A stretch of DNA of 64,000 bases, from contig CP147780.1 of the NCBI GenBank assembly GCA_037310415.1, positions 1,472,001-1,536,000 of the forward strand. The letters are read 5' to 3'. Of this stretch, positions 42,976 to 54,662 are shown in pieces. The translations under genes and the position numbers were made by a program. Under the pieces are notes generated by a model. It worked only from the letters and a program-made list of their open reading frames with translations, had not been told where the DNA came from and ran no database searches. The DNA comes from Candidatus Atabeyarchaeum deiterrae (GTDB lineage: Archaea; Asgardarchaeota; Atabeyarchaeia; Atabeyarchaeales; Atabeyarchaeaceae). The stretch's first letter is position 1. Every line of letters begins with the position of its first letter.

Positions 42976-43102
42976 TGGAGGGGAGTAGGGGAATCGAACC
43001 CCTGTCGCGGACTATCCACGGTGTGGGTACTGCAGGCCTTAGAGTGAGCTTGGCTAGGTCGGCCAGAAGCTCATCGCCCCTAAGCCACTCGGACAACTCC
43101 CC
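42976..43102 (-). tRNA. tRNA-Cys(GCA) with two introns (43074-43039 at position 28/29; 43029-43014 at 37/38), CCA encoded
   Basis: Acceptor GGGGAGT/ACTCCCC, discriminator U73, T-arm AGGGG-TTCGATT-CCCCT. Removing both introns gives anticodon arm CGGGC-CTGCAGA-GTCCG and a 75-nt cloverleaf. Confidence 0.9.
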
Positions 43103-43149: not shown

Positions 43150-43169
43150 ATTTTAAACTTGTGGATTTC
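43150..43169 (-). promoter_or_regulatory. probable TATA/BRE of the tRNA-Cys gene
   Basis: Minus strand GAAATCCACAAG-TTTAAAAT, about 50 nt upstream of G1. Confidence 0.5.
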
Positions 43170-43313
43170 GGTTCTGTCAAGTCTTCGATTGATGCCTAGT
43201 TTTCCTCTCCCTGTAAAGTTTCGGTTGATATCCTTGTTAATTTGGCCTAGGATGAGAAATAGCATTAACCGTCGTAGGATGCTATCAAAAATCGGTCTCA
43301 CGGGACTAGATTC

Positions 43314-43883
43314 TCAGAGTGTGTTGTCACATTTTGCGCAGAGGTGTCTTTTTGAAGAGATAATAGTTGCCGCCTCTTTACCACATCTCTCACAAATATA
43401 GGGGACTATTCCAAACTCGTCTTTGCCGTTTGGTTCTCTTAACCCCTTTTTGACTTCGTAAAGATACTTATTGAACCTTACAAAATCTCTTTCAGGCCTG
43501 AAACTTCCCCATTCTCTTAGTTTTCTGCTTTCTTCATCCTCCCTTATGAAGACCATATCAAACAGAGCATCTTTTCCCTCGTTCTCATTGCTAACCCCGT
43601 ACGCTATCACTGTATATTCTTCTCCGTTAACTCTGAATGAAACCTCATCCCAAAGTGGGTATCCACCGTTGATATCAAGAGATCCTCTCTGTTCATGCTC
43701 TATCAGTTTTTCTGCGCTCACTCTATCCATTGTATTCTCAAAACTGTTGTTTTCAAGAAGATACTGTGCTTCAAACCAGAAAGCAATATTATCATATGGG
43801 CCTTCCCACAATCTGTCTTCCTTAGGAATCTCAGTTACTATTCTTCTAAACCTTTGCAATTTCTCTGCATATTCTTTGTCCAT
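43314..43883 (-). CDS. hypothetical transposon cargo protein with C-terminal zinc ribbon
   Basis: 189 aa; CERC...CAKC; GGAG RBS. Confidence 0.7.
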   Translation of the reverse strand: MDKEYAEKLQRFRRIVTEIPKEDRLWEGPYDNIAFWFEAQYLLENNSFENTMDRVSAEKLIEHEQRGSLDINGGYPLWDEVSFRVNGEEYTVIAYGVSNENEGKDALFDMVFIREDEESRKLREWGSFRPERDFVRFNKYLYEVKKGLREPNGKDEFGIVPYICERCGKEAATIISSKRHLCAKCDNTL

Positions 43884-43911
43884 CTTGCAGTGTCGCTCTC
43901 CTAACTAACCC

Positions 43912-44667
43912 TTACAACATTAATAGGCCTCCATTCTTTTTCAGCATGAACATTCTGCCTTCTTCCATCGATCCATTATGCCTAATACTGAATGGCCTAG
44001 GAATACCGATGTCCGTCCAGTATCTCGGTTTGGTCATGATTTCTTCAGCGGCGAGTATTCCACTAGCACCTATCTCTGACCAACCTTTTTTCTCAGTAAT
44101 AATCCATTCCGTAGAAAGTGTTGATCTGATCTTCAAAAGCTCACGCTCTGACATAGTAAAGCCATGGCTAAGAAGTTGTCCTTTAATGATCCTATAAGGG
44201 TTGACTATATCGGGTATCCCAGACATCTGCCGCTTTCTATGTACCATATTACTGTAAGCATTCTGCCTATAGAAAATCTGAGCACTACCGTCCAACTCTT
44301 TCAGTGATGCTAGACTGCCCTTGATTGGTTCCGTAACTCCACGGGTCTTAATCACCACATCTGGCACTTCACCAGAAACCCCAAGAATGTCCTCAAGAAT
44401 TTCCTTTTGTGTCACTGGTGCTACATCATCAGGCTCTGGGTTCCCCATCTGATAGCAATACTTATCGACATCGTATGGATGCTTCACTATTTCGCCAAAT
44501 GTCGTCCTCTTCTCGCTAATTCTCCTAGTATTGACTTGAGATACTTCTGCCCCACACCAGAAAAGCTCTGTCTTCTTTTCACCGACGTCACACTGCTTCC
44601 TTAACAAGGGTAGAAAATCCATTCGCCTTATCCATGAATCTGGATATGGTTTAATTTCTACACTCAT
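43912..44667 (-). CDS. hypothetical transposon cargo protein
   Basis: 251-aa ORF with GGAGG RBS; no recognisable motif. Confidence 0.7.
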   Translation of the reverse strand: MSVEIKPYPDSWIRRMDFLPLLRKQCDVGEKKTELFWCGAEVSQVNTRRISEKRTTFGEIVKHPYDVDKYCYQMGNPEPDDVAPVTQKEILEDILGVSGEVPDVVIKTRGVTEPIKGSLASLKELDGSAQIFYRQNAYSNMVHRKRQMSGIPDIVNPYRIIKGQLLSHGFTMSERELLKIRSTLSTEWIITEKKGWSEIGASGILAAEEIMTKPRYWTDIGIPRPFSIRHNGSMEEGRMFMLKKNGGLLML

Positions 44668-44718
44668 TTCTTCCCCCTCCGTACTGAACTCTTCCTTCTA
44701 TTCCTTCAGATGGTTTGT

Positions 44719-46059
44719 TTATTTCTTCATCTTCTCAGAGAGTCCTTTCTCAGCGGTTCTTAACTTAGCTAGTTGTTCCACACGCATCTTTTCGTATGCC
44801 TTCTCTGCCTGTGTTATCCTGACATTGTGGCATAGCCAGCCTAGATGGTTCGGCTCACCGCAGACTGGACAAAATAACGCTTTATCGTCTACATGATCCA
44901 GAGCCTTCTGTGCCTCAATAGTTCTGGACCAAGCTTGGTACTCTGGAAGCATCTTCTTTGCGAGGAGTTCTATTTGACTCTCCCTAGATGCATCCACTAT
45001 AGCTTTGACTCTCTCTGGTGAGTAAATCTCTCTTGCTTCCTCAACACTGGTCTTAATCTCGTCTACACGCTTCAGTTGTTCATCCTTAGATTGCTTGGTT
45101 GCATCCAACTCATTCAGGACTCTCTCATGGAACTCCCTTGGAAGTTCTGAAACAACCTTCCCAACAACCTCTGGCTCCATACCACTCTTCGGGTTGATGG
45201 TGGCTTCAATGACTCTGCGTGGCGCACCAGACTTCTCAGCTTCCTTTATGATCTTTGGAATCGCCTGAATGCTATCTGCTTCTAGCCCTGACGCACGTTT
45301 GACAAGCCTTTCCTTATCCTTCGTTGGCAAACTCTGAATCTCTGGAGTCTTCGAGATCTTCACAAGTGTTTCTATTTGTTCTCCCTTTTTTATCTCACCA
45401 GAACCAAGAGCTTTGAATGCCTCTTTCCTCATAGTCTCATCCACAATCCGATCTGCGTCTCTTATGGAGGTAACTCCTACTATGCCATCCTCCACAAGTT
45501 TCCATTGTTCAGGATGCCCCAAAAGTTTGATGTAGATGTTGATTGTCGTTCGCGGCACTCCAATATCGTTTGAAAGCTCGGATTGACCCTGTGGCTTAGT
45601 TCCACCCTCTCCACCTTTTTTCGCATCTGCTAAGCTTAGCAGATGCTCCCGATCCTTCTCATACATCTTCTTGACTTCTGCGATGGTGTGGAACTTACCA
45701 CTGTTGATATTCACGACACCCGTTGCATACGCCCACATGCGGTCTAACTCGTTCAGACTTTTCCTTAACGCATCATCTGCGAGCTGACGCTCAAACCATT
45801 GTTGATCAGACAACCCAACTTTCTTTCGTACTGGGACTTTGACACCAACTTTTATCGCCGCTAAAACTCGATTGTGGCCTCTACGAATCATATTATGCTC
45901 ATCAACCTCTATCGGCTCTATTACTCCTTGATGCTTGTAGTTCTCTGAGAGACTAGCTATGAAGTCTTGGTCAAAGACTGTTCTTGGGTTGTTTGGATCA
46001 GACTTCAGAGATTTCGGATCGGTATAGTTTATTTCAATTCTCGATTCGGGTTCAGCCAT
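44719..46059 (-). CDS. ParB/Srx N-terminal domain protein with HTH and C-terminal Zn site
   Basis: PNNPRTVFD...GVIEPIEV..RRGHNRVLAA (ParB box-like), HTH QSELSNDIGVPRTTIN and CPVC...CH. Confidence 0.8.
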   Translation of the reverse strand: MAEPESRIEINYTDPKSLKSDPNNPRTVFDQDFIASLSENYKHQGVIEPIEVDEHNMIRRGHNRVLAAIKVGVKVPVRKKVGLSDQQWFERQLADDALRKSLNELDRMWAYATGVVNINSGKFHTIAEVKKMYEKDREHLLSLADAKKGGEGGTKPQGQSELSNDIGVPRTTINIYIKLLGHPEQWKLVEDGIVGVTSIRDADRIVDETMRKEAFKALGSGEIKKGEQIETLVKISKTPEIQSLPTKDKERLVKRASGLEADSIQAIPKIIKEAEKSGAPRRVIEATINPKSGMEPEVVGKVVSELPREFHERVLNELDATKQSKDEQLKRVDEIKTSVEEAREIYSPERVKAIVDASRESQIELLAKKMLPEYQAWSRTIEAQKALDHVDDKALFCPVCGEPNHLGWLCHNVRITQAEKAYEKMRVEQLAKLRTAEKGLSEKMKK

Positions 46060-46207
46060 TTCCTAATTCACCTTTTGAGCATTTTTTTACCATTTCAATG
46101 AGCTTCTTGATTATAATATCGTAGGTGTCACCTTTTTTACCCATGTCTGCGAGGATTTCGCGTGTCTCCTTTGAAATTTGAATGGTGGTTATGTCTTCTC
46201 TATTCAT
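46052..46207 (-). CDS. small RHH-like DNA-binding protein (51 aa), not in the ORF track
   Basis: MNREDITTIQISKETREILADMGKKGDTYDIIIKKLIEMVKKCSKGELGNG; its stop overlaps the ParB-like start (ATGGCTGA). Confidence 0.75.
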   Translation of the reverse strand: MNREDITTIQISKETREILADMGKKGDTYDIIIKKLIEMVKKCSKGELGNG

Positions 46208-46213
46208 TTATAT

Positions 46214-46303
46214 CGCCTGTAGATTCTATAGGCGTTATTTCCATTTAAGTTTTTCCGTAGTCCCCATAACACTTATATGCCATAGTGGCTATAGTTACTA
46301 TGG
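46214..46303. promoter_or_regulatory. divergent promoter with two palindromic candidate operators
   Basis: CGCCTGTAGA-T-TCTATAGGCG (46214-46234) and CCATAGT-GGCTATAGTT-ACTATGG (46280-46303) flank TATA-like elements. Confidence 0.55.
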
Positions 46304-47469
46304 TGATGAAGATGTTGACTCTGCAAGAGCTTGAGAAAGTCCGTGAAGAAAGAGGCTTAGAAATCGCGAAGGCAAAGGAAACCCAAGTAACTCGAATTGA
46401 TGATGCCAGTTACAAGGTTCTCTCCCAGAGTGGCAACGGAGCTTACCTCGTCTCTCTTACTGAGGATGGATGGGTGTGCGAGTGCCCAGACTACGGGTTC
46501 AGAGGGGTTAAATGTAAGCACATCTGGGCTGTGGAGATCAGCATCACCCTCAAGGAACAAGTTAGGAAGAATGTTGTCCTTGAGGAGGTTACGGTTTCAA
46601 AGTGCCTCTTCTGCCACTCCGAGAACATAAAGAAGTTTGGAGTCAGACGAAACAAGAGCGGCGGTATTCAGCGTTTCCTCTGTGGTGCATGTGGAAGGAC
46701 TTTCAGCGTGAACATAGGCTTCGAGAAGATGAAGCATAATCCTCAAGCCGTCACGTCAGCTATGCAACTATACTTTAGCGGTGAATCTCTGCGTAACACT
46801 ATGAGGTCTCTGAGGTTGCTGGGTGTCGGCGTTTCACATCAGACGGTTTACAACTGGATTAGCAAGTACGTGAAGCTGATGAAGGAATACGTTGAGAAAC
46901 TAACTCCTAATGTGGGCGATACATGGAGAGCCGATGAGCTATACGTGAAAATCAAAGGTGACATGAAGTACCTGTTTGCCTTAATGGATGATGAGACACG
47001 GTTTTGGATTGCTCAAGAGATAGCCGACACCAAGTATAGACACGATGCGGGAAACCTCTTCCGAAAGGGAAAGGAACTCACGGGGAAGAAGCCTCTAACC
47101 CTGATAACGGATGGTCTCTCAGCTTATCACCTTGCGTACAAGAAGGAGTTTTACACGAACTCCAAACCGAGAACGGAGCACATCCAACACATCACTATTA
47201 GAGGAGACCATAACAATAACAAGATGGAGAGGTTCAACGGAGAAATCAGAGGCAGAGAAAAAGTCATAAGAGGACTAAAGAAAAGCAACACGCCAATCCT
47301 TAAAGGCTACCAAGTATTTCACAACTTCATAAAACCACACGAAGGATTAGACGGCAAGACCCCTGCGGAAGCCTGCGGGATTGAGGTCAAGGGGGACAAT
47401 AAGTGGATAACTCTGATCAAAAACGCAACCCAGATGACGAAAGTTGACAGGAAGACGGAGAACACCTAG
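46285..47469 (+). CDS. IS6-family DDE transposase with N-terminal SWIM zinc finger and zinc ribbon (likely start 46312)
   Basis: SWIM CECPD...CKH, CLFC...CGAC, HTH VSHQTVYNW and DDE motifs WRADELYVK / ITDG / NNKMERFN. Confidence 0.9.
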   Translation: MAIVTMVMKMLTLQELEKVREERGLEIAKAKETQVTRIDDASYKVLSQSGNGAYLVSLTEDGWVCECPDYGFRGVKCKHIWAVEISITLKEQVRKNVVLEEVTVSKCLFCHSENIKKFGVRRNKSGGIQRFLCGACGRTFSVNIGFEKMKHNPQAVTSAMQLYFSGESLRNTMRSLRLLGVGVSHQTVYNWISKYVKLMKEYVEKLTPNVGDTWRADELYVKIKGDMKYLFALMDDETRFWIAQEIADTKYRHDAGNLFRKGKELTGKKPLTLITDGLSAYHLAYKKEFYTNSKPRTEHIQHITIRGDHNNNKMERFNGEIRGREKVIRGLKKSNTPILKGYQVFHNFIKPHEGLDGKTPAEACGIEVKGDNKWITLIKNATQMTKVDRKTENT

Positions 47470-47473
47470 ATGG

Positions 47474-47491
47474 CGAATACTTGACAGAACC
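47474..47491 (-). repeat. internal copy of the transposon right inverted repeat
   Basis: CGAATACTTGACAGAACC; its reverse complement matches the left end at 17/18 positions. Confidence 0.85.
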
Positions 47492-47770
47492 AATTCTAGC
47501 CCCTTTGAAGTAAGCTCAGCTTTTTGGACAATAAGAACAACGCAACCAACCCCAGAAGGCGCATGGTAAGCATGTAAAGACTTAAATACCCTGAGCTGCC
47601 TAAAAATCAAACATATAGGAAGATACATGCGCGTTTACTTCATTTTAGGCGGGAAGGGAGTAGTTGAACTTGGCTGGAGCGCGTGTGCTAAATTGTAAAG
47701 CAACGCATATCCACCTCGGATGGGGATTATTCTGAAACTAACCAGAATCAAGATACTAAGTTGATGAATT

Positions 47771-48412
47771 ATGACTAGAACGCTTAAAGAAAAGGCTATA
47801 GACTATTTTCTTACCCTTTATTTGGTTGATGATGCGTTCTCTCGCTTGAAAATAGGTTTTCTACCTGACACGAAATTGCAGAAATTAGTTTTCCTATCAG
47901 AAAAGTCGATGATTCATGAACGCGAGAAAGGATTCAATTTCAATTTTATCAAGCTCACGCATGGCCCATTCAGTCAAGAGCTTAAGACTAGTTATGACAA
48001 TCTATCTCAAATAGGAATCCTAGGCGAGTTTGGATTAACACCAACAACTAATTCCAAAATAATTTTAGAGGATTTTCAAGAGATAATCAAAAGAAATACG
48101 ACATTCTTTCAGAAAATCACAACCGTGAACAACGATTTTGCTAGAATGCCACTAGAAGAACTTCTCAAGATAATATACGCAATGCCATGGGGTGGAAAAG
48201 ACCAGACCATTGCAGATCTACAACCACGGACACCCATGCTTTACCCATTGAAACCGAACAATGTCAAAATCGAATTTGAATTGACAAATGACGATGTTGA
48301 AAACTTGCTCATGAATTTTGACGTCAAAACAGTCAAAATGTCACTCCAAGCGATGAAAGAAATGAGAGCTGGGGGTTTGCTTACTCATGAGCAGGTCTTC
48401 TCCAATCTATAA
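47771..48412 (+). CDS. Panacea/SocA (DUF4065)-like antitoxin
   Basis: TKLQKLVFL...FIKLTHGPFS motif; C-terminal tail AMKEMRAGGLLTHEQVF resembles type II antitoxins; overlaps the downstream toxin-like gene. Confidence 0.7.
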   Translation: MTRTLKEKAIDYFLTLYLVDDAFSRLKIGFLPDTKLQKLVFLSEKSMIHEREKGFNFNFIKLTHGPFSQELKTSYDNLSQIGILGEFGLTPTTNSKIILEDFQEIIKRNTTFFQKITTVNNDFARMPLEELLKIIYAMPWGGKDQTIADLQPRTPMLYPLKPNNVKIEFELTNDDVENLLMNFDVKTVKMSLQAMKEMRAGGLLTHEQVFSNL

Positions 48413-48719
48413 GGATGTGTATACACCTCTTTTTGTTAGCCAGCTTGAGAAACTTGAGAAGAAAGCTAGGGTACGCGCGGAACATATAAGAGACGAGACA
48501 CAAGCCATTCTCGTTGACCCCTATAGGAACATAAAGTTTGGCAAAGCCATATACCGCGGAAAAAGAGAATGGAAAGTTGACGGCGATAGAATACTCTTTG
48601 TTGTATGTAAGCAATGCAGGAAATTGGGCCATCAGAAGTACAATTTATGTGGCGACTGTGAAAGTACTGCTGATGAGACTGTTGTGTTCGCATCTATTGT
48701 AGAAAGCCACAATTACTAA
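48387..48719 (+). CDS. RelE/ParE-like toxin with Cys4 insertion
   Basis: YTPLFVSQLEKL...ILVDPY...REWKVDGDRILFVV...VVFASI..H.Y; CKQC...CGDC inserted. Confidence 0.65.
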   Translation: MSRSSPIYKDVYTPLFVSQLEKLEKKARVRAEHIRDETQAILVDPYRNIKFGKAIYRGKREWKVDGDRILFVVCKQCRKLGHQKYNLCGDCESTADETVVFASIVESHNY

Positions 48720-48851
48720 GCTTGAACCTGTTTTAGGGTCTTCACGTAGGCGCGCTTAACCATATCGTCAATCGTTTTTCACCGCATTTTGCATCAACCG
48801 AAGGGTAACACCCTCACACATCACTCAGATCAACCGCAGAGGTAAATCACC

Positions 48852-49250
48852 TTGGGTAATGTGGCAAAAAAGAAACTATCAACCAAAGAAATCGAAAATA
48901 AGGCAATAGAATGCGTAGAGGGTTATCTGAAGAGCAGGGGAGAAAAGCCAGAAATCACTAAGAAAGGCATCGATGTTATTTCTGGCGAAAAATGGATTGA
49001 AGTTAAGGGAAGTATGAAAAAGGAAACCAATCTAAGAACAACATGGCAAACATTAAAATATGTTGAGAAAAACGATAAACTCCGTGATTTCTTCATTTAC
49101 TATGTCTTTGACATGGAATCAGGGAATCCGAAACTGCTGATTTTCGATCATGATACCTTCGAGAAATATAAACTCAAAGAAATAAGATGGATAATACAAC
49201 CCAGGAAGATAATAAGGGAAACAGGTAAACCTGAGATAATTCGATTGTGA
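48852..49250 (+). CDS. small PD-(D/E)XK nuclease (DUF3883-like)
   Basis: IENKAIE...GIDV...IEVKG...FFIYYV. Confidence 0.7.
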   Translation: MGNVAKKKLSTKEIENKAIECVEGYLKSRGEKPEITKKGIDVISGEKWIEVKGSMKKETNLRTTWQTLKYVEKNDKLRDFFIYYVFDMESGNPKLLIFDHDTFEKYKLKEIRWIIQPRKIIRETGKPEIIRL

Positions 49251-49756
49251 AAACTACCTGATAGTACCATCAACCGACTTTTGACAGCCCACCGAGAAAC
49301 AGCGATCAACCTAAGACTTTACAGAACCTGGATTTCAAGCACATTGAATTTGTGTTGGGCTTTCAACCCAGTCAACGAATCTCCTTTCTGAACACTCTCA
49401 GCCATCTATGAAACTCTAGTTTATGCCTTATTGCTAACCTAGTCAGCCGACTTCCAGATGATTTGCCAAAGATTCTCTAAAATGGCCGACTGTGTTCAAT
49501 ACCATTCTATCAACTACAATAGGCCTGCTTCTCTTGCCTGCCGAGAAACGGCACGGAGTCTCTTAATGGCGAGCTATGATCTATTGCGCGAGTGCAACTC
49601 GCTTTGACTCCCTCCGATGATAAGATGTACGCGCAATCTGACTGTTTGTGGAAGTCGACAAGTGGTGTTGCCGAGGGTTGACCGCGAAGAGGCTGTCTAG
49701 AGGCGATAATCTTAAATGCTCCAGTCTTCTCAAGTCTTCTCAGATAACTTCATAAG

Positions 49757-50485
49757 TTGACAACGTTAACGGAGGGGACAACATTACAGAGAAGATCCGT
49801 CTGTGCTCTTATGCTGCTTCTTGGAGTTCTGCTAACGATATCATGCGTACCTTCGCAAGGTGTTAACTATCCGAAAATAGGGGTAAAGATAGGAGACTAT
49901 GCAGACTACTCATACACATTTTGGTTCAACGGATCATATCATACGCCCTTCGATTGGTATAGAATTCTTGTCGCTAACATTAGCCTATCGTCGATCCCTG
50001 GTTACACTGAATTGAGCATTGAGTTCGATGGACATTTTGCCAATGGAACGTGGTATTCTCCATGGACGGGTCACTTGGACTTGAGCAATAATAGCGTCTT
50101 GACTGGCGGGGTTGTCGACGATATCATGTGGATTGTCCCGGCAGATTTGGTTAATGGGCAATTGGTTTCAATCCCATATGTGATAAACGAGACTACCTCA
50201 ATGTTAGTTGCAGGTGCAGTCAGGACTGTCAACCATCTGAGAATTGCTGCAGATAACTTTGGCGCAGGAGACTATCACCCAGACATCTACTGGGACAAAG
50301 CTACTGGAGTGCTGGTCAAAGCCAACATACTTAGACATAATACTTGGACGAACCTCACAATGTTGTCAACAAACATGTGGTCAAATGGTGACTGGACAAC
50401 CTTGCTCCTGATAAGCGGTGGAGTTGCCCTAGTCATAGGAGTTGCGTGCTTAGTTGCTTTTGTGATTCGAAAGAGGCGAAGCTAA
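49757..50485 (+). CDS. secreted protein with C-terminal membrane anchor
   Basis: Signal-like hydrophobic N-terminus, GVKIGDYADY, YWDKATGVLV, many NxS/T sequons, C-terminal TM plus RKRR. Confidence 0.75.
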   Translation: MTTLTEGTTLQRRSVCALMLLLGVLLTISCVPSQGVNYPKIGVKIGDYADYSYTFWFNGSYHTPFDWYRILVANISLSSIPGYTELSIEFDGHFANGTWYSPWTGHLDLSNNSVLTGGVVDDIMWIVPADLVNGQLVSIPYVINETTSMLVAGAVRTVNHLRIAADNFGAGDYHPDIYWDKATGVLVKANILRHNTWTNLTMLSTNMWSNGDWTTLLLISGGVALVIGVACLVAFVIRKRRS

Positions 50486-50803
50486 TCGTCAATTAAGAGC
50501 GATAACGACGCGGTAGCTGCGTGGCGTGTCCTCGAAGCAAACCGTGTCGATTCAAGTACTCTTTTTCGTAATTCTTGGTGTGTCAAATCAATCTTAGCAT
50601 CAATTGCTTAGGAGCTACGAGCAGGCTCTGAGCGCCTGATTGGCATCACGTTCATATAGTGTATTTTTTCCTCTTGGATATTTGTTTCAGTCTGCAACTT
50701 GATATCATTGCGGAGCATAGTTGCCTTTGAATTCTTTCGCTAAGAAGACTTATGCTTGCGAACACGCATATGGAGCCTTTGAGACTGCCAACTACCAAAG
50801 GAA

Positions 50804-51727
50804 ATGCGTGACGGAGCAACATTCGAGAACTCAGAACAATCTGAATCTGGGGAAGAAACTCCCATGACGAACAGACTAACAAAGGCGGAGTTCACTAATC
50901 TAGGCAAGATCATGTATCCAGAGGCGAAAATCACGAAGGCTCAGACAATCGAGTACTATATCCGAATGGCCCCTGCGATGCTGGATCTGCTTCATGATAG
51001 ACCATTGGTTTTGACCAGATTCCCAAATGGGATCAATCGGGAAAGCTTCTACGAAAAAGACGCGCCTCTTGGTGCACCATCTTGGATCAAGACTTTCAGG
51101 AAGTATTCCGAAGCGGCTGAAAGAGACATAAACTATGTCCTCTGTAATGATCTTGACACACTTATTTGGCTTGCTAATCTTGCTGCACTCGAGATCCATG
51201 TTACTCTCTCAAAGGCAACTTCTCTTGAAAACCCGGATCTATTGCTTTTTGATTTGGATCCTCAGCCTCCAGCAAGTTTTGATGATGTTGTCTCTGTTGC
51301 TCTACTACTTAAGGAAACCTTAGAAGAACTAGGTTTGAAATCTTTCACAAAAACCTCTGGAAAGAGAGGGCTTCACATCGTGGTTCCTATCGTTAGTGAA
51401 TACAGTTACCGGCAAACTAGAGAGTTCGTTCATCTCATCGGAAAACACTTAGTTAGGAGATCAGAAATCGTAGTCTCCGAGTTTTCAAGAGAAAAGAAGC
51501 CAGGCACCATATATATAGACTACTTGCAGAATTCTCATGGAAGGACTATGGTAAGCCCTTACAGCCTCAGAGCTACACCTGAAGCTACCGTGTCGACACC
51601 GATTGATTGGAAAGATGTCAAGAAAGGATTAAAACCTGAGACGCTGAATCTGTTCACTGTGCCCAATATTAATGAGCGGCCATGGGAGGGCATGCTACGG
51701 GACAGCCAAAGGCTGGATGTGGATTAG
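50804..51727 (+). CDS. NHEJ primase-polymerase (stand-alone LigD PolDom; likely start 50864)
   Basis: TNLGKIMYP, RFPNG..FYEK, FDLDP, KTSGKRGLH, YIDYLQN and PYSLRA. Confidence 0.93.
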   Translation: MRDGATFENSEQSESGEETPMTNRLTKAEFTNLGKIMYPEAKITKAQTIEYYIRMAPAMLDLLHDRPLVLTRFPNGINRESFYEKDAPLGAPSWIKTFRKYSEAAERDINYVLCNDLDTLIWLANLAALEIHVTLSKATSLENPDLLLFDLDPQPPASFDDVVSVALLLKETLEELGLKSFTKTSGKRGLHIVVPIVSEYSYRQTREFVHLIGKHLVRRSEIVVSEFSREKKPGTIYIDYLQNSHGRTMVSPYSLRATPEATVSTPIDWKDVKKGLKPETLNLFTVPNINERPWEGMLRDSQRLDVD

Positions 51728-51728
51728 C

Positions 51729-52529
51729 ATGGCAAAGAAACAAGGGGAAAAACGAATCTCAAGAAGACCGATCTGGACTGGTAGCATAACAATTGGCTTA
51801 GTGAATGTTCCAGTGAAGCTACTTACCATGATATTCGATAAAGGCATCTCCTTCAGATTCCTGCATAAACACGATGGGCAGCCACTTAGATACGATAAGG
51901 TTTGTATCGAGGAAAACAAGGTTGTTCCTTGGGAAGAAATAATCCGAGGATACGAAGTCAGGAAAGGCCAATTCATAACCTTCGAAAACGATGAACTTGA
52001 AGCCGCTAGACCAGAATCTGATCAGAGGATTCGCATTGACAAATTCGTCGACTACTCTACAATAGACCCAATCTACTTTGATAAATCCTATATGCTTACG
52101 CCCGACAACAGTGAAGATGCCTACAGCTTGCTTCTAGCGGCTTTGGAGATGATGGGCAAAGCTGGAACCGGAAGAATCACACTCAGAACAAAAGAATATC
52201 CCCTCATCGTGCACGCCTACAAGGGGGCATTGGTTCTGACAACACTGCGCTATGCCTATGAAGTCGCAGATCCAGGTGACCTAGAAGAGCCCATGAAGCT
52301 AAAGCAGCCAAGAAAGGACGAATTAGATCTAGCGATGAAAATCGTCACTGATCTCTCCGGACAATTTGATTCAGCTCAGTACAAGGACGCATATAGAGAA
52401 AGAATAGAGAAACTCATCCAGATGAAACTCAAAGGAGAGCGCATCGTTTTCGAGAAGCCTGTCAAAGAGGAAGCAAAGGAATTAATGATAGCCCTCAAAG
52501 AAACTCTCAAGCAGCTGAAAAAGAAATGA
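51729..52529 (+). CDS. ku: NHEJ DNA end-binding protein Ku
   Basis: RPIWTGSITIGLVNVPVKL, IIRGYEV, IDPIYFDKSY.L.P and YKDAYRERI. Confidence 0.95.
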   Translation: MAKKQGEKRISRRPIWTGSITIGLVNVPVKLLTMIFDKGISFRFLHKHDGQPLRYDKVCIEENKVVPWEEIIRGYEVRKGQFITFENDELEAARPESDQRIRIDKFVDYSTIDPIYFDKSYMLTPDNSEDAYSLLLAALEMMGKAGTGRITLRTKEYPLIVHAYKGALVLTTLRYAYEVADPGDLEEPMKLKQPRKDELDLAMKIVTDLSGQFDSAQYKDAYRERIEKLIQMKLKGERIVFEKPVKEEAKELMIALKETLKQLKKK

Positions 52530-53920
52530 GACAATACTACAAGCCAATGCTCGCAAATTCTGCAGCAGCACCCTTCACATCAAGAGACTGGATTTTCGAG
52601 ATCAAATGGGATGGGATCAGAGCCATCAGTTATGTTGACAACGAACTGAGCGTACGAAGCAGAAACGGGAAGGAAATGAAAGACAAGTTTCCAGAGCTGG
52701 AAGAACTGAAGAGCGTAGCGATGAATACTGTCCTTGATGGCGAGATCGTCGTCATGCAAGAGAAGAGACCGGATTTTCAGACTCTTTTGGAGAGGAGCAG
52801 AGCTACCTCTATTCGTGATGCACAGTATATCGCCAGTAGCGTCCCGGTTACATATGTGGTCTTCGACATTCTTGAGAAAGATGGTGAGCGTCTGGCCAGC
52901 CTTCCGTTGGTAGAAAGAAAGAGAATACTAAGAGAACGAGTCAAGGATGGGAAATATGTCGTGTTGTCTGTCTTCGTAGAAGAGGATGGAGACACATACT
53001 ATAAGGAAGCTATCAAAAGAGGCGTCGAGGGCATCGTCGCCAAGAAAAAAGACAGTCCATATGAATCAGGTGTGCGAAGCAAGAATTGGCTAAAGGTAAA
53101 GAAAGTTCAGACGTGCGACTGCGTGATCTTTGGATATACTAAGGGCGAAGGATTCAGGGAAGGAACTTTTGGAGCCCTAATCCTGGGACTATATGACAAC
53201 AAGACTCCAGTGTTCGTAGGCAAAGTTGGAACTGGATTTTCCGATAGCACCATGCGGACGCTTCTTGAAGCATTTGAGGAGCTTAAGGCAGGCAAAGAGA
53301 CTCTCGCTGGCGTTGATGTCCAAGAGGAGATCACATGGCTCAAACCAGAGCTAGTCTGCGAGGTTGCATATCAGAATCTCACAAAAGAAGGTAAGCTGCG
53401 CATGCCAAGGTTCCACGGACTTCGACCAGACAAGATTCCGACTGAGTGCACCCTGGATCAAGTGAAACAAAGTGGCCTCTCAGAGTACGGCTCAAAGAGA
53501 GACTTCACCGTCACACCGGAGCCAAAAGGTGTCTCAAAGGTTACCGGCGGTAGAACCTTCGTCGTACAGGAACACCATGCAAGAAGACTCCACTATGACC
53601 TGCGATTAGAAAATGAAGGCGTCCTAAAGAGTTGGGCTGTTCCAAAAGGAGTCCCCGAGAAACCTAGTGAAAAGAGACTCGCAGTCGAAGTCGAGGATCA
53701 CCCACTAGAGTACGGACGATTTGAAGGAGAAATACCCAAAGGACAATATGGAGCAGGAACAGTTAGAATCTGGGACAAAGGCACTTACGAGCAAAAGACA
53801 TGGACAGCAGATAAAATCGAAGTTTTCCTAAAGGGAGAAAGACTGTCTGGAAGGTACGTGCTCGTGAAGTTCAAGAAAGCGGGCGAAAAGGGATGGATCC
53901 TCATGAAAGCGAGAGATTGA
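52526..53920 (+). CDS. ligD: NHEJ ATP-dependent DNA ligase fused to C-terminal 3'-phosphoesterase domain
   Basis: EIKWDGIR, LDGEIV, FDIL, EGIVAK, WLKVK and OB domain, then FVVQEHHARRLHYDLRLE, SWAVPKG, EDHP..Y and WDKG (PE). Confidence 0.93.
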   Translation: MRQYYKPMLANSAAAPFTSRDWIFEIKWDGIRAISYVDNELSVRSRNGKEMKDKFPELEELKSVAMNTVLDGEIVVMQEKRPDFQTLLERSRATSIRDAQYIASSVPVTYVVFDILEKDGERLASLPLVERKRILRERVKDGKYVVLSVFVEEDGDTYYKEAIKRGVEGIVAKKKDSPYESGVRSKNWLKVKKVQTCDCVIFGYTKGEGFREGTFGALILGLYDNKTPVFVGKVGTGFSDSTMRTLLEAFEELKAGKETLAGVDVQEEITWLKPELVCEVAYQNLTKEGKLRMPRFHGLRPDKIPTECTLDQVKQSGLSEYGSKRDFTVTPEPKGVSKVTGGRTFVVQEHHARRLHYDLRLENEGVLKSWAVPKGVPEKPSEKRLAVEVEDHPLEYGRFEGEIPKGQYGAGTVRIWDKGTYEQKTWTADKIEVFLKGERLSGRYVLVKFKKAGEKGWILMKARD

Positions 53921-53921
53921 T

Positions 53922-54662
53922 ATGAAGAACCTCCACATAGGCACAATGGGCTGGAGCTACAATTTCTGGACCGGCAACTTCTACCCAGCAGGACTCAAAT
54001 CAGACGAGTTCCTAGCTGCATATTCGAAACACTTTGATACGGTCGAAGTAGACAACACGTTCTACAGAGTCCCCTACAAGAGCTCAGTTGAAAAATGGAA
54101 AGAGCAAACGCCAGCAGATTTCATTTTCTCTGCAAAATTCCCTCGAAAAGTGACACATCTCAAAGTGCTAAGGGACTGTGAGGAAGAGGTGCGATACTTC
54201 CTCGAGACGATGACAACTCTTCAAAACAAGCTTGGGCCACTACTACTTCAATTTCCCCCGAAGTTTGGGCCAAAAGATATTCCTGCTCTCAAAGATTTCA
54301 TTCCGATTTTGCCCAAAGGCTACAGATTCGCAGTGGAAGTAAGAAACAAGAACCTGCTTGTTGATAAGTTGTACTCGCTTCTGAGAGAAAACGGGATTGC
54401 ATTGGTCTTGCTAGATAGTCCAATTATGCCACGAATGGAAGAAGTGACTGCTAGTTTTCTCTACACAAGATGGGAAGGAGACAGAAACAAACTGAATGGG
54501 ACACTGGGAAGAGTCGAGATTGACAAAAGAGAAGATCTTCGCGATTGGAGCAAGAGAATAAGGAAAATGCTCGATGACTCAATCGAGGTTTTTGGGTACT
54601 TCAGCAAGTTCTACTCAGGTTACCCTCCATCAGATGCCATGGAACTCTTGAAGCTGATTTGA
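53922..54662 (+). CDS. DUF72 domain-containing protein
   Basis: IGTMGWSY, VEVDNTFY, KFPRKVTH, LLQFPP and AVEVR. Confidence 0.92.
   Translation: MKNLHIGTMGWSYNFWTGNFYPAGLKSDEFLAAYSKHFDTVEVDNTFYRVPYKSSVEKWKEQTPADFIFSAKFPRKVTHLKVLRDCEEEVRYFLETMTTLQNKLGPLLLQFPPKFGPKDIPALKDFIPILPKGYRFAVEVRNKNLLVDKLYSLLRENGIALVLLDSPIMPRMEEVTASFLYTRWEGDRNKLNGTLGRVEIDKREDLRDWSKRIRKMLDDSIEVFGYFSKFYSGYPPSDAMELLKLI

Follow-up and report, generated by a model that had tools for sequence, protein, structure and literature searches.

The window analysed here, 64,000 nucleotides of the genome of Candidatus Atabeyarchaeum deiterrae (contig CP147780.1, positions 1,472,001 to 1,536,000), carries at positions 43170-49328 a 6,159-bp block that we regard, with a probability of roughly 0.85, as the insertion of a cargo transposon related to the IS6 family of insertion sequences (IS) and equipped with a DDE transposase. 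The block holds eight open reading frames (ORFs) and lies between two copies of the 8-bp repeat TGGATTTC, at 43162-43169 and 49329-49336. Its ends read GGTTCTGT(C/A)AAGTCTT: the left tip GGTTCTGTCAAGTCTT (43170-43185) and its inverted right partner GGTTCTGTAAAGTCTT (49313-49328) match in 15 of 16 positions and in 21 of 24 over 24 nt, and 70% complementarity between the left and the outer right end reaches 60 nt. Four minus-strand ORFs lie to the left of the transposase gene and three plus-strand ORFs to its right, all seven passengers pointing outward. The exact flanking repeat, the inverted ends, the single transposase and the seven outward passengers are all where the original prediction had placed them; two further right ends, one intact (47432-47491) and one with a decayed tip (48793-48852), were absent from that description. 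The boundaries, ends and transposase gene are as follows.

43162-43169, no strand: left copy of the 8-bp target-site duplication TGGATTTC, read from the sequence
43170-43229, plus strand: two-part left end, made up of a 24-nt terminal inverted repeat, GGTTCTGTCAAGTCTTCGATTGAT, plus a copy in subterminal position, CTGTAAAGTTTCGGTTGAT, ending at nt 60
46285-47469, plus strand: 394-aa transposase (389 aa if begun at the ATG at 46300), with a SWIM zinc finger, a Cys4 zinc ribbon, a helix-turn-helix motif (HTH) and an IS6-type DDE(R) domain, in that order
47432-47491, minus strand: inner right end, intact, in two parts, with tip GGTTCTGTCAAGTATTCG
47492-47499, no strand: AATTCTAG, the 8 bp following the inner right end, different from the outer duplication
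48793-48852, minus strand: middle right end, tip decayed, 60-nt two-part layout retained
49269-49328, minus strand: outer right end in two parts, with tip GGTTCTGTAAAGTCTTAGGTTGAT, the best partner of the left end (21/24)
49329-49336, no strand: right copy of the target-site duplication TGGATTTC, read from the sequence

All four ends, the left one and the three right ones, follow one two-part layout of 60 nt: the terminal repeat takes up 24 nt, and its second copy stops at nt 60. The tip of the inner right end (47474-47491), whose start falls two bases into the transposase stop codon or 5 nt past the stop, matches the left end in 17 of 18 positions and in 18 of 24 over the full repeat, its inner half being of a different flavour (..CGCCATCT); an overlap with the transposase stop is likewise seen at the right end of relatives that have no right arm. 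The 8 bp that follow, AATTCTAG, are possibly the fossil target sequence of an earlier event. The middle right end agrees in 19 of 24 positions with the TTACCTCT-class inverted repeat (class reference L016, L021), its tip being AGGTGATT rather than GGTTCTGT. With up to three mismatches allowed, the end 16-mer occurs four times in the window against 0.82 expected, and in the whole 2.76-Mb, one-contig genome the end motif is present in three places only, all of them within 43170-49328. Passenger DNA is usually moved by IS6/IS26 elements as a pseudo-compound structure (PMC7986276), and several right ends within one block could be taken for the remnant of such a structure or of a cointegrate, two flanking IS copies having moved the cargo and one having since been lost. 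We consider this highly improbable: the block has one transposase gene, a further copy or fragment of which is found neither in the block nor in the genome, its three right ends are co-oriented and face a single left end, no IS copies are directly repeated, and about 96 relatives share the layout of one transposase with cargo inside the ends.

The enzyme itself argues for an IS6 relationship. Above their cut-offs, Pfam recognizes a SWIM domain (27.3 bits, cut-off 19.6) and DDE_Tnp_IS240 (61.9 bits, cut-off 27), and NCBIfam a Zn-binding domain of the IS1/IS1595 type (33.3 bits, cut-off 28), while the HTH and DDE regions together span positions 1-202 of the 202 in the NCBIfam IS6 transposase model (118.3 bits). 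Across 55 aligned members, C65/C67/C77/H79, C107/C110/C133/C136 and D217/D276/E315/R322 are at least 95% conserved; the zinc ligands and the DDE(R) residues are thus kept, and the arrangement of HTH and DDE with K or R seven residues after the E is that of IS6-type transposases. The enlarged SWIM, zinc-ribbon, HTH and DDE enzyme proposed originally is therefore borne out. In wetland sequencing runs, contigs cover window positions 46616-47518, the transposase gene, 2-6 times as deeply as the remainder of the element, and many of these contigs are only 90-95% alike; related transposases of other organisms are abundant in the same samples.

Relatives decide what kind of element this is. Loci were surveyed in genome contigs (80 loci, set 1) and in metagenome contigs (80 loci, set 2), an element being defined by GGTTCTGT-type inverted repeats bounded by identical 8-mers. 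This yielded 56 bounded elements in genome contigs, the window's included, and 42 in metagenome contigs, with sizes of 2.0-8.1 kb; about 96 relatives each combine a single homologous transposase with GGTTCTGT ends and an 8-bp duplication free of mismatches. Exact 8-bp direct repeats accompanied 61 inverted-repeat pairs at offset 0 and none at offsets of 8, 16 or 24. Homologues of the transposase number more than 5,000, and many are proteins of 375-395 aa, 70-84% identical to that of the window; within the bounded relatives they measure 370-394 aa. At 52 of 192 ends, and at none of the controls, the repeat recurs exactly in subterminal position, some 51 or 60 nt in from the tip, and about a fifth of the end pairs in the family match in 18 of 24 positions or fewer. 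The right end overlaps the transposase stop in ten elements, and all others have right arms of 0.3-3.9 kb. Hosts comprise Asgard archaea, Bathyarchaeia, Methanoperedens, Methanoregula, Nitrososphaeria and Thermoplasmata. Judged by these sequences, the family is IS6-related and forms a distinct archaeal clade. Both the anatomy of the block and these one-transposase relatives agree with the unit cargo transposon on an enlarged IS6-like enzyme that had been predicted.

Cargo is present in all elements found, and its content changes from element to element. Every element has one transposase, the remaining ORFs are mostly unique to their element, and the roughly 96 relatives carry 0.85-7 kb of variable genes within their inverted repeats, as the original prediction requires of homologous elements. 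Matches to Pfam and PADLOC among 101 passenger ORFs of at least 140 aa point mainly to restriction-modification functions, with type IIG restriction-modification enzymes in nine elements, four N6_N4 methylases and further restriction-type matches to MmeI, Tsp45I, GmrSD, Mrr and type I S subunits. Among the other passengers are GNAT acetyltransferases, proteasome-like proteins, ParB and a TBP paralogue. The last of these (L034:2961-3518, minus strand; Pfam TBP 1.2e-29) belongs to the cargo of a 7.6-kb element from a Bathyarchaeia genome and shares 32% identity with TBP of the host type, a notable passenger in a transposon family that targets TATA boxes.

Movement of whole units is documented in two relatives. 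A 4,223-bp element (L021, L022, L023), whose type IIG restriction-modification gene is accompanied by a DUF7557 gene and by a transposase 73-74% identical to that of the window, is inserted, with the duplication CTAAAATT, between a thioredoxin gene and the rps13 operon. Its empty allele lies on a 16-kb contig on which the thioredoxin and rps13 genes are adjacent, agrees with the predicted empty site in 140 of 140 positions, holds a single copy of the 8 bp (AATTTTAG) and comes from the same Joint Genome Institute (JGI) sample as one of the occupied contigs. In another genome, two 100% identical copies of 2,434 bp end exactly at the repeat tips and have different duplications, CTGTTCGA and AGAGAGAG, which fits copy-in transposition without proving it. 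Passengers lying between one pair of ends with a single transposase are thus seen, through empty and occupied alleles and through identical copies, to behave as a unit; the single-copy empty site that had been anticipated is present for the 4,223-bp relative and was not found for the window copy. For the latter, unit movement is suggested by the duplication together with the best-matching outer ends. Six metagenome contigs (L131, L146, L163, L174, L126 and L152) contain one element with only about 100-128 bp of flank on each side, as would result from an assembler breaking at a polymorphic insertion, which suggests that many of these insertions are not fixed in their populations.

The insertions share a position relative to promoters. 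In reconstructed empty sites, the order outward from the element tip is the 8-bp target, about five bases (often caa or aaa) and then the motif YTTAWAWA. This motif, at seven or more of eight positions, lies at offset 10-14 in 27 of the 90 free flanks of set 1, most commonly at offset 13, compared with 1.6% of random positions in the same loci and 1-5 of 90 flanks at other offsets, and it may face either end of the element. Set 2 replicated the result with 17 of 79 flanks, again at offset 13. When a position matrix was trained on set 1 with the window excluded, one flank exceeded the 99th percentile of random in 29 of 40 set-2 elements and the 95th in 36 of 40. ORFs that read outward often start 31-45 nt past the box, a spacing that suits archaeal mRNAs with a short leader or none; they encode thermosome subunits (5 of 29, in different lineages), RadA, ribosomal proteins L3 and S13, GAPDH, SufB, TBP, TFB, a proteasome subunit and ProRS. 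By motif and gene arrangement, the family inserts 5 bp upstream of the predicted TATA-like box of housekeeping promoters. No description of such promoter targeting for archaeal transposons was found in the literature searched.

The window insertion, which lies by a tRNA promoter, is an instance of this targeting rule. Under the model trained without the window, its left flank outscores all 20,000 random control positions, and its right flank is at the random level. The two features concerned are listed here.

43150-43161, minus strand: target promoter motif caaG-TTTAAAAT, BRE/TATA-like and read outward, from the sequence and the motif model
42979-43102, minus strand: tRNA gene with an intervening sequence of about 50 nt, served by the targeted promoter

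The box itself (43150-43157, minus strand) starts about 4 nt from the duplication and is directed at the tRNA, which follows 55 nt further on. The original prediction had the insertion abut a tRNA-Cys promoter; that a tRNA promoter with a BRE/TATA-like motif adjoins the duplication stands, and the assignment to Cys is not supported. The gene at 42979-43102 reaches 30 bits with Rfam RF00005, with a 65-nt insert, and was called by ARAGORN when introns were allowed; default ARAGORN and Rfam at its gathering threshold, run over the whole window, both missed it. Its sole perfect 5-bp anticodon stem, UGAGC/GCUCA, gives CUG, and the tRNA is therefore probably Gln (CUG) rather than Cys, an identity for which no support was found. 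Apparently an intron occupies the anticodon loop of the gene, and a second insertion precedes the T arm. Its orthologue in Atabeyarchaeia-1 (L108:1481-1620) is 98% identical over 116 nt and differs past the T arm, as if a further insertion were present there. A tRNA gene 60 bp away might also bring to mind an integrative island inserted by a site-specific recombinase, with the repeat as its att site, and integrase-driven elements are on record from Atabeyarchaeia (PMC11529989). Such an origin is exceedingly unlikely here, since none of the eight ORFs is an integrase by Pfam, NCBIfam or PHROG, the repeat, 8 bp long, falls outside the tRNA and adjoins inverted repeats of the IS6 type, and the relatives occupy dozens of different sequences; on gene content, aloposons and integrase-type islands were both rejected.

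How the promoter is recognized can be framed in two ways: the TATA region could be contacted directly by the extra zinc modules of the transposase, or through the bent DNA bound by TBP and TFB. It is tempting, albeit speculative and in our view doubtful as a whole, to propose that the SWIM and zinc-ribbon modules read promoter-bound TBP/TFB or bent DNA, a prokaryotic counterpart of Ty3/Tf1-type tethering, and that stacked arrays form an assembly line for multi-cassette defence transposons spreading across archaeal phyla, Asgard archaea included. The yeast retrotransposons Ty3, Ty1 and Tf1 integrate at a fixed or narrow distance upstream of transcription starts, using promoter-bound factors as a signal of a safe haven. 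The likeness is one of analogy; these are eukaryotic retroelements whose integrases are tethered to TFIIIB, Pol III or Sap1.

The promoter-side copy of the 8 bp is left by each insertion at an unchanged distance from the box, and the site consequently stays a target. Of 111 element flanks, 21 pass directly from the shared 8 bp into the tip of another family member; each of these neighbours encodes a transposase itself, and its end class often differs. In L049 (4715-16046, for example), L053, L065, L095 and L096, two or three distinct autonomous members lie head to tail or tail to tail, with the same 8 bp as their only spacer and a TATA box at one edge of the array. Internal end-like sites are found in 13 of 98 elements, several of which have serial right ends like those of the window; an inner right-end relic directly after the transposase occurs in the window element and in none of 40 other two-armed elements. 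The first cassette of the right arm (47492-48852) encodes an antitoxin candidate and a toxin candidate that are 58% and 51% identical, respectively, to a pair in the left arm of another member (L053b), in inverted orientation; in both elements the pair lies about 130-165 nt from the element end. In view of the arrays, the nested ends and this homology of the first cassette, the right arm is read as two cassettes that appear to derive from other family members, each still closed by its former right end.

Given the nested right ends and the re-use of target sites, an exact duplication is by itself no proof that the full 6.2 kb came in a single step. The composite might have formed elsewhere and moved here through its left and outermost right ends, or it might have been assembled in situ and never have moved whole. 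In the latter scenario an older member would have sat at the promoter-proximal 8 bp, a 4.3-kb element, from the left to the inner right end, would later have hit the TATA-proximal copy, and either an adjacent deletion mediated by the transposase or recombination would have eliminated the shared 8 bp together with the older element's near half. Several observations suit it: target sites are re-used in the family, which builds arrays on a single 8-bp sequence (21 of 111 flanks), the TATA box is found next to the 4.3-kb unit, on the flank at which the latest insertion would be expected, the inner right end is undamaged and the following one has a decayed tip, the junction 24-mer formed by the inner right end, AATTCTAG and the following bases was not found elsewhere in genome contigs, and IS6-family deletions are known to start exactly at an element end (PMC7986276). 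Assembly in place would nevertheless take two deletions, each ending exactly at an element tip, and two-armed relatives move as units. The left end is also closer to the outer right end (21/24, with similarity over 60 nt) than to the inner one (18/24), a weak point given that about a fifth of family pairs are at or below 18/24; it mildly favours arrival as a unit. On balance we hold assembly in situ to be a tentative alternative and formation elsewhere, followed by movement, the favoured history, so that the window copy would have arrived as one 6.2-kb unit.

For the favoured unit transposon, the following course may be proposed. One transposase would bind the two-part ends, each made of a 24-nt repeat starting with GGTTCTGT and a second copy about 50-60 nt inward. 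The left end would be paired with the outermost right end and joined to a target cut with an 8-bp stagger, all DNA between the two being carried along, either by IS6-style copy-in through cointegrates or by cut-and-paste. The 8 bp hit would lie 5 bp upstream of a BRE/TATA box firing outward, at about -44 to -37 of the promoter, which would survive the insertion and leave the same spot, here at the promoter of a tRNA gene, open to repeated hits. Re-use of that spot could then create tandem arrays of different members spaced by the same 8 bp, and fusion or deletion inside such arrays could have produced the right arm of the window element, first a RelE-type toxin-antitoxin cassette and then a NOV_C nuclease-like one.

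A number of points weigh against this reading. The score against the NCBIfam IS6 equivalog, 118.3, is just below the cut-off of 125, and biochemistry is lacking for the clade and for any archaeal IS6-like element (PMC6807381). The promoter function of the TATA-like boxes is deduced from sequence and gene geometry, and the start site predicted in the window would give the tRNA a leader of about 24 nt. Since arrays share one 8-bp sequence, a composite built in situ would show identical outer repeats as well. The element is single-copy in its own genome, as is its transposase gene, and neither an empty allele nor an excision joint nor a circle junction was obtained for the window copy. All contigs that reach the site are occupied (two studies, at least eight runs); in Logan contigs from four runs of two studies both junctions are bridged and occupied, with no joint skipping 43170-49336 and no back-joint of the circle type, such contigs being blind to rare variants. 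The predicted empty-site 23-mer was not found in metagenome or genome contigs, and exact-protein look-ups of the right-flank genes returned only contigs that were occupied or too short. The sister genome Atabeyarchaeia-1 (G001) keeps the synthetase gene of the left flank and the tRNA, diverges directly after the tRNA and offers no empty site.

Set against known systems, the element is closest to IS6/IS26 (IS26, IS257 and IS6100; in archaea ISH14 and ISC774), with which it shares an HTH-DDE(K/R) transposase matching IS6 models, a single transposase gene and an 8-bp duplication. The GG..CTGT start of the GGTTCTGT ends resembles IS257-type ends. Inverted repeats that start with GG and contain cTGTt, as in IS6/IS26, are present in a longer form (24 nt) with a subterminal second copy, and the 8-bp duplication typical of that family is seen in the two copies of TGGATTTC, in the 61 exact pairs against none at shifted positions and in the single copy at the empty site of a relative. 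The compact, transposase-only build is not shared: with 6,159 bp and eight ORFs in the window and 2.0-8.1 kb among relatives, the elements far exceed the usual 0.7-0.9 kb. Unlike IS6/IS26, they have several variable passengers inside their ends, two-part ends of 60 nt and a strong preference for sites 5 bp upstream of TATA boxes, and cargo inside the ends of a single element departs from the two-copy rule of IS6. Their transposases, 370-394 aa with SWIM and zinc ribbon, also contrast with the 211-250 aa of IS6/IS26 (PMC7986276, PMC6807381 Table 5).

IS6 reviews list one passenger-carrying member and place long zinc-finger transposases in Clostridia only (PMC7986276, PMC6807381). The latter, clades h and i, share with the window element an N-terminal zinc-finger extension on an IS6-type core, and the former, ISDsp3, is similar in carrying cargo, namely one passenger gene (PMC7986276). 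By their descriptions, both are set apart as compact bacterial IS of 1.2-1.8 kb with no or one passenger, whereas the clade described here is archaeal, has extra genes in every element found and turns its cargo over (PMC7986276). Harmer and Hall argued that the IS6/IS26 family is a poor fit for the archaeal groups as well as for the long zinc-finger ones (PMC6807381). Tn7-family transposons, reported from archaea too, have in common with the window element that they are cargo-carrying DDE transposons with tight, non-disruptive targets and defence-rich cargo; they use TnsABC and TniQ, make 5-bp duplications and insert at specific genes or guide-RNA sites, compared with a single IS6-type protein, 8-bp duplications and a generic promoter target (10.1101/2025.07.27.667033). 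Casposons are archaeal as well and form tandem arrays with one shared duplication (PMC6563490), and differ in being based on Cas1, whereas aloposons are archaeal elements with giant proteins that insert site-specifically at tRNA genes (PMC8813620). Neither shares a gene family with the window element beyond a distant ParB-like cargo protein. According to a 2019 survey, DNA transposons with passengers were yet to be detected in archaea (PMC6563490), and no prior description of the family was found in the literature searched; the IS6 reviews and that survey are consistent with the suggestion, made at the outset, that the vehicle was undescribed (PMC7986276, PMC6807381, PMC6563490).

The IS6 family is the textbook case in which two copies are needed to move cargo, and this clade does so with one IS6-type enzyme. 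It is abundant and combines three unexpected traits: a large, fast-changing cargo made up mainly of restriction-modification and toxin-antitoxin genes, a safe site a set distance upstream of strong housekeeping promoters, and stacking and fusion at that site. It thereby provides a concrete vehicle for the flow of defence genes between archaeal phyla and a testable case of promoter-directed transposition under eukaryote-like TBP/TFB transcription. A site-biased integrase consisting of a single protein might also serve archaeal genetics.

The seven passenger genes of the window element, from left to right, are these.

43314-43883, minus strand: ORF of 189 aa with no assigned function; weak C-terminal matches of the Zn-ribbon kind, all below cut-off
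43912-44667, minus strand: ORF of 251 aa, no family match
44719-46059, minus strand: ORF of 446 aa with an N-terminal ParB-like domain
46052-46207, minus strand: small DUF7557/RHH-like protein of 51 aa, whose gene diverges from that of the transposase and opens the left-arm operon
47771-48412, plus strand: ORF of 213 aa, candidate antitoxin of the SocA/Panacea kind
48387-48719, plus strand: ORF of 110 aa, candidate toxin of the RelE/ParE kind, overlapping the antitoxin candidate
48852-49250, plus strand: 132-aa ORF carrying a restriction-endonuclease-like NOV_C domain, at 26.6 bits in Pfam against a cut-off of 22.1

The identities foreseen for these passengers held in part. The ParB-like protein is recovered by TIGR00180 (1e-9) and PHROG 4715 (2.7e-14), with Pfam ParB_N (2e-4) below its cut-off, and the NOV_C match agrees with a nuclease-type protein. 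The regulator match, DUF7557/RHH-like at 24.7 bits in Pfam, is just under its cut-off of 25, and the addiction pair consists of ESM Atlas leads only. For the antitoxin candidate these are 0.95 by features and 0.88 by structure (TM), accompanied by PADLOC PDC-M19A at 3.9e-6 and the C-terminal part of DarG at 9e-4; for the toxin candidate they are 0.94 and TM 0.84. Neither protein has a Pfam or NCBIfam match at cut-off, and the gene pair is kept in L053b. By this assignment, the candidate pair probably stabilizes the element. On one Logan contig corresponding roughly to window 46991-51190 (L202), the antitoxin-like and toxin-like genes are split into four ORFs of 127, 76, 33 and 80 aa, representing either a decaying allele or assembly errors.

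The small DUF7557/RHH-like protein is probably a regulator of the transposase gene. At the same position, most of 55 elements have a small ORF of about 50-140 aa whose weak matches are of varied types (RHH, AbrB/MazE, Zn-ribbon); a hidden Markov model built from the DUF7557-like and AbrB-like groups reached 13 of 56 elements, so a single accessory family at this position is not supported. In the divergent region between this gene and the transposase gene (46208-46299), both strands bear TATA-like boxes, and there are two near-palindromic words, CTATAGGCG and GGCTATAG, which may be an operator for the small protein.

Beyond the element, the closest complete genome to that of the window is the published Atabeyarchaeia-1 chromosome (L029), which places the window's genome in the same Asgard family. 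The Atabeyarchaeia genome paper counts four integrated elements for 'Atabeya-2' and, in total, five 'IS-like transposons', and its text mentions no IS6-type cargo element (PMC11529989). About 1.5 kb downstream of the element, at 50804-54662, the window has a tight operon whose Pfam labels are LigD primase-polymerase, Ku, a LigD_N-containing ligase and DUF72, a set of the non-homologous end-joining type that is uncommon in archaea.

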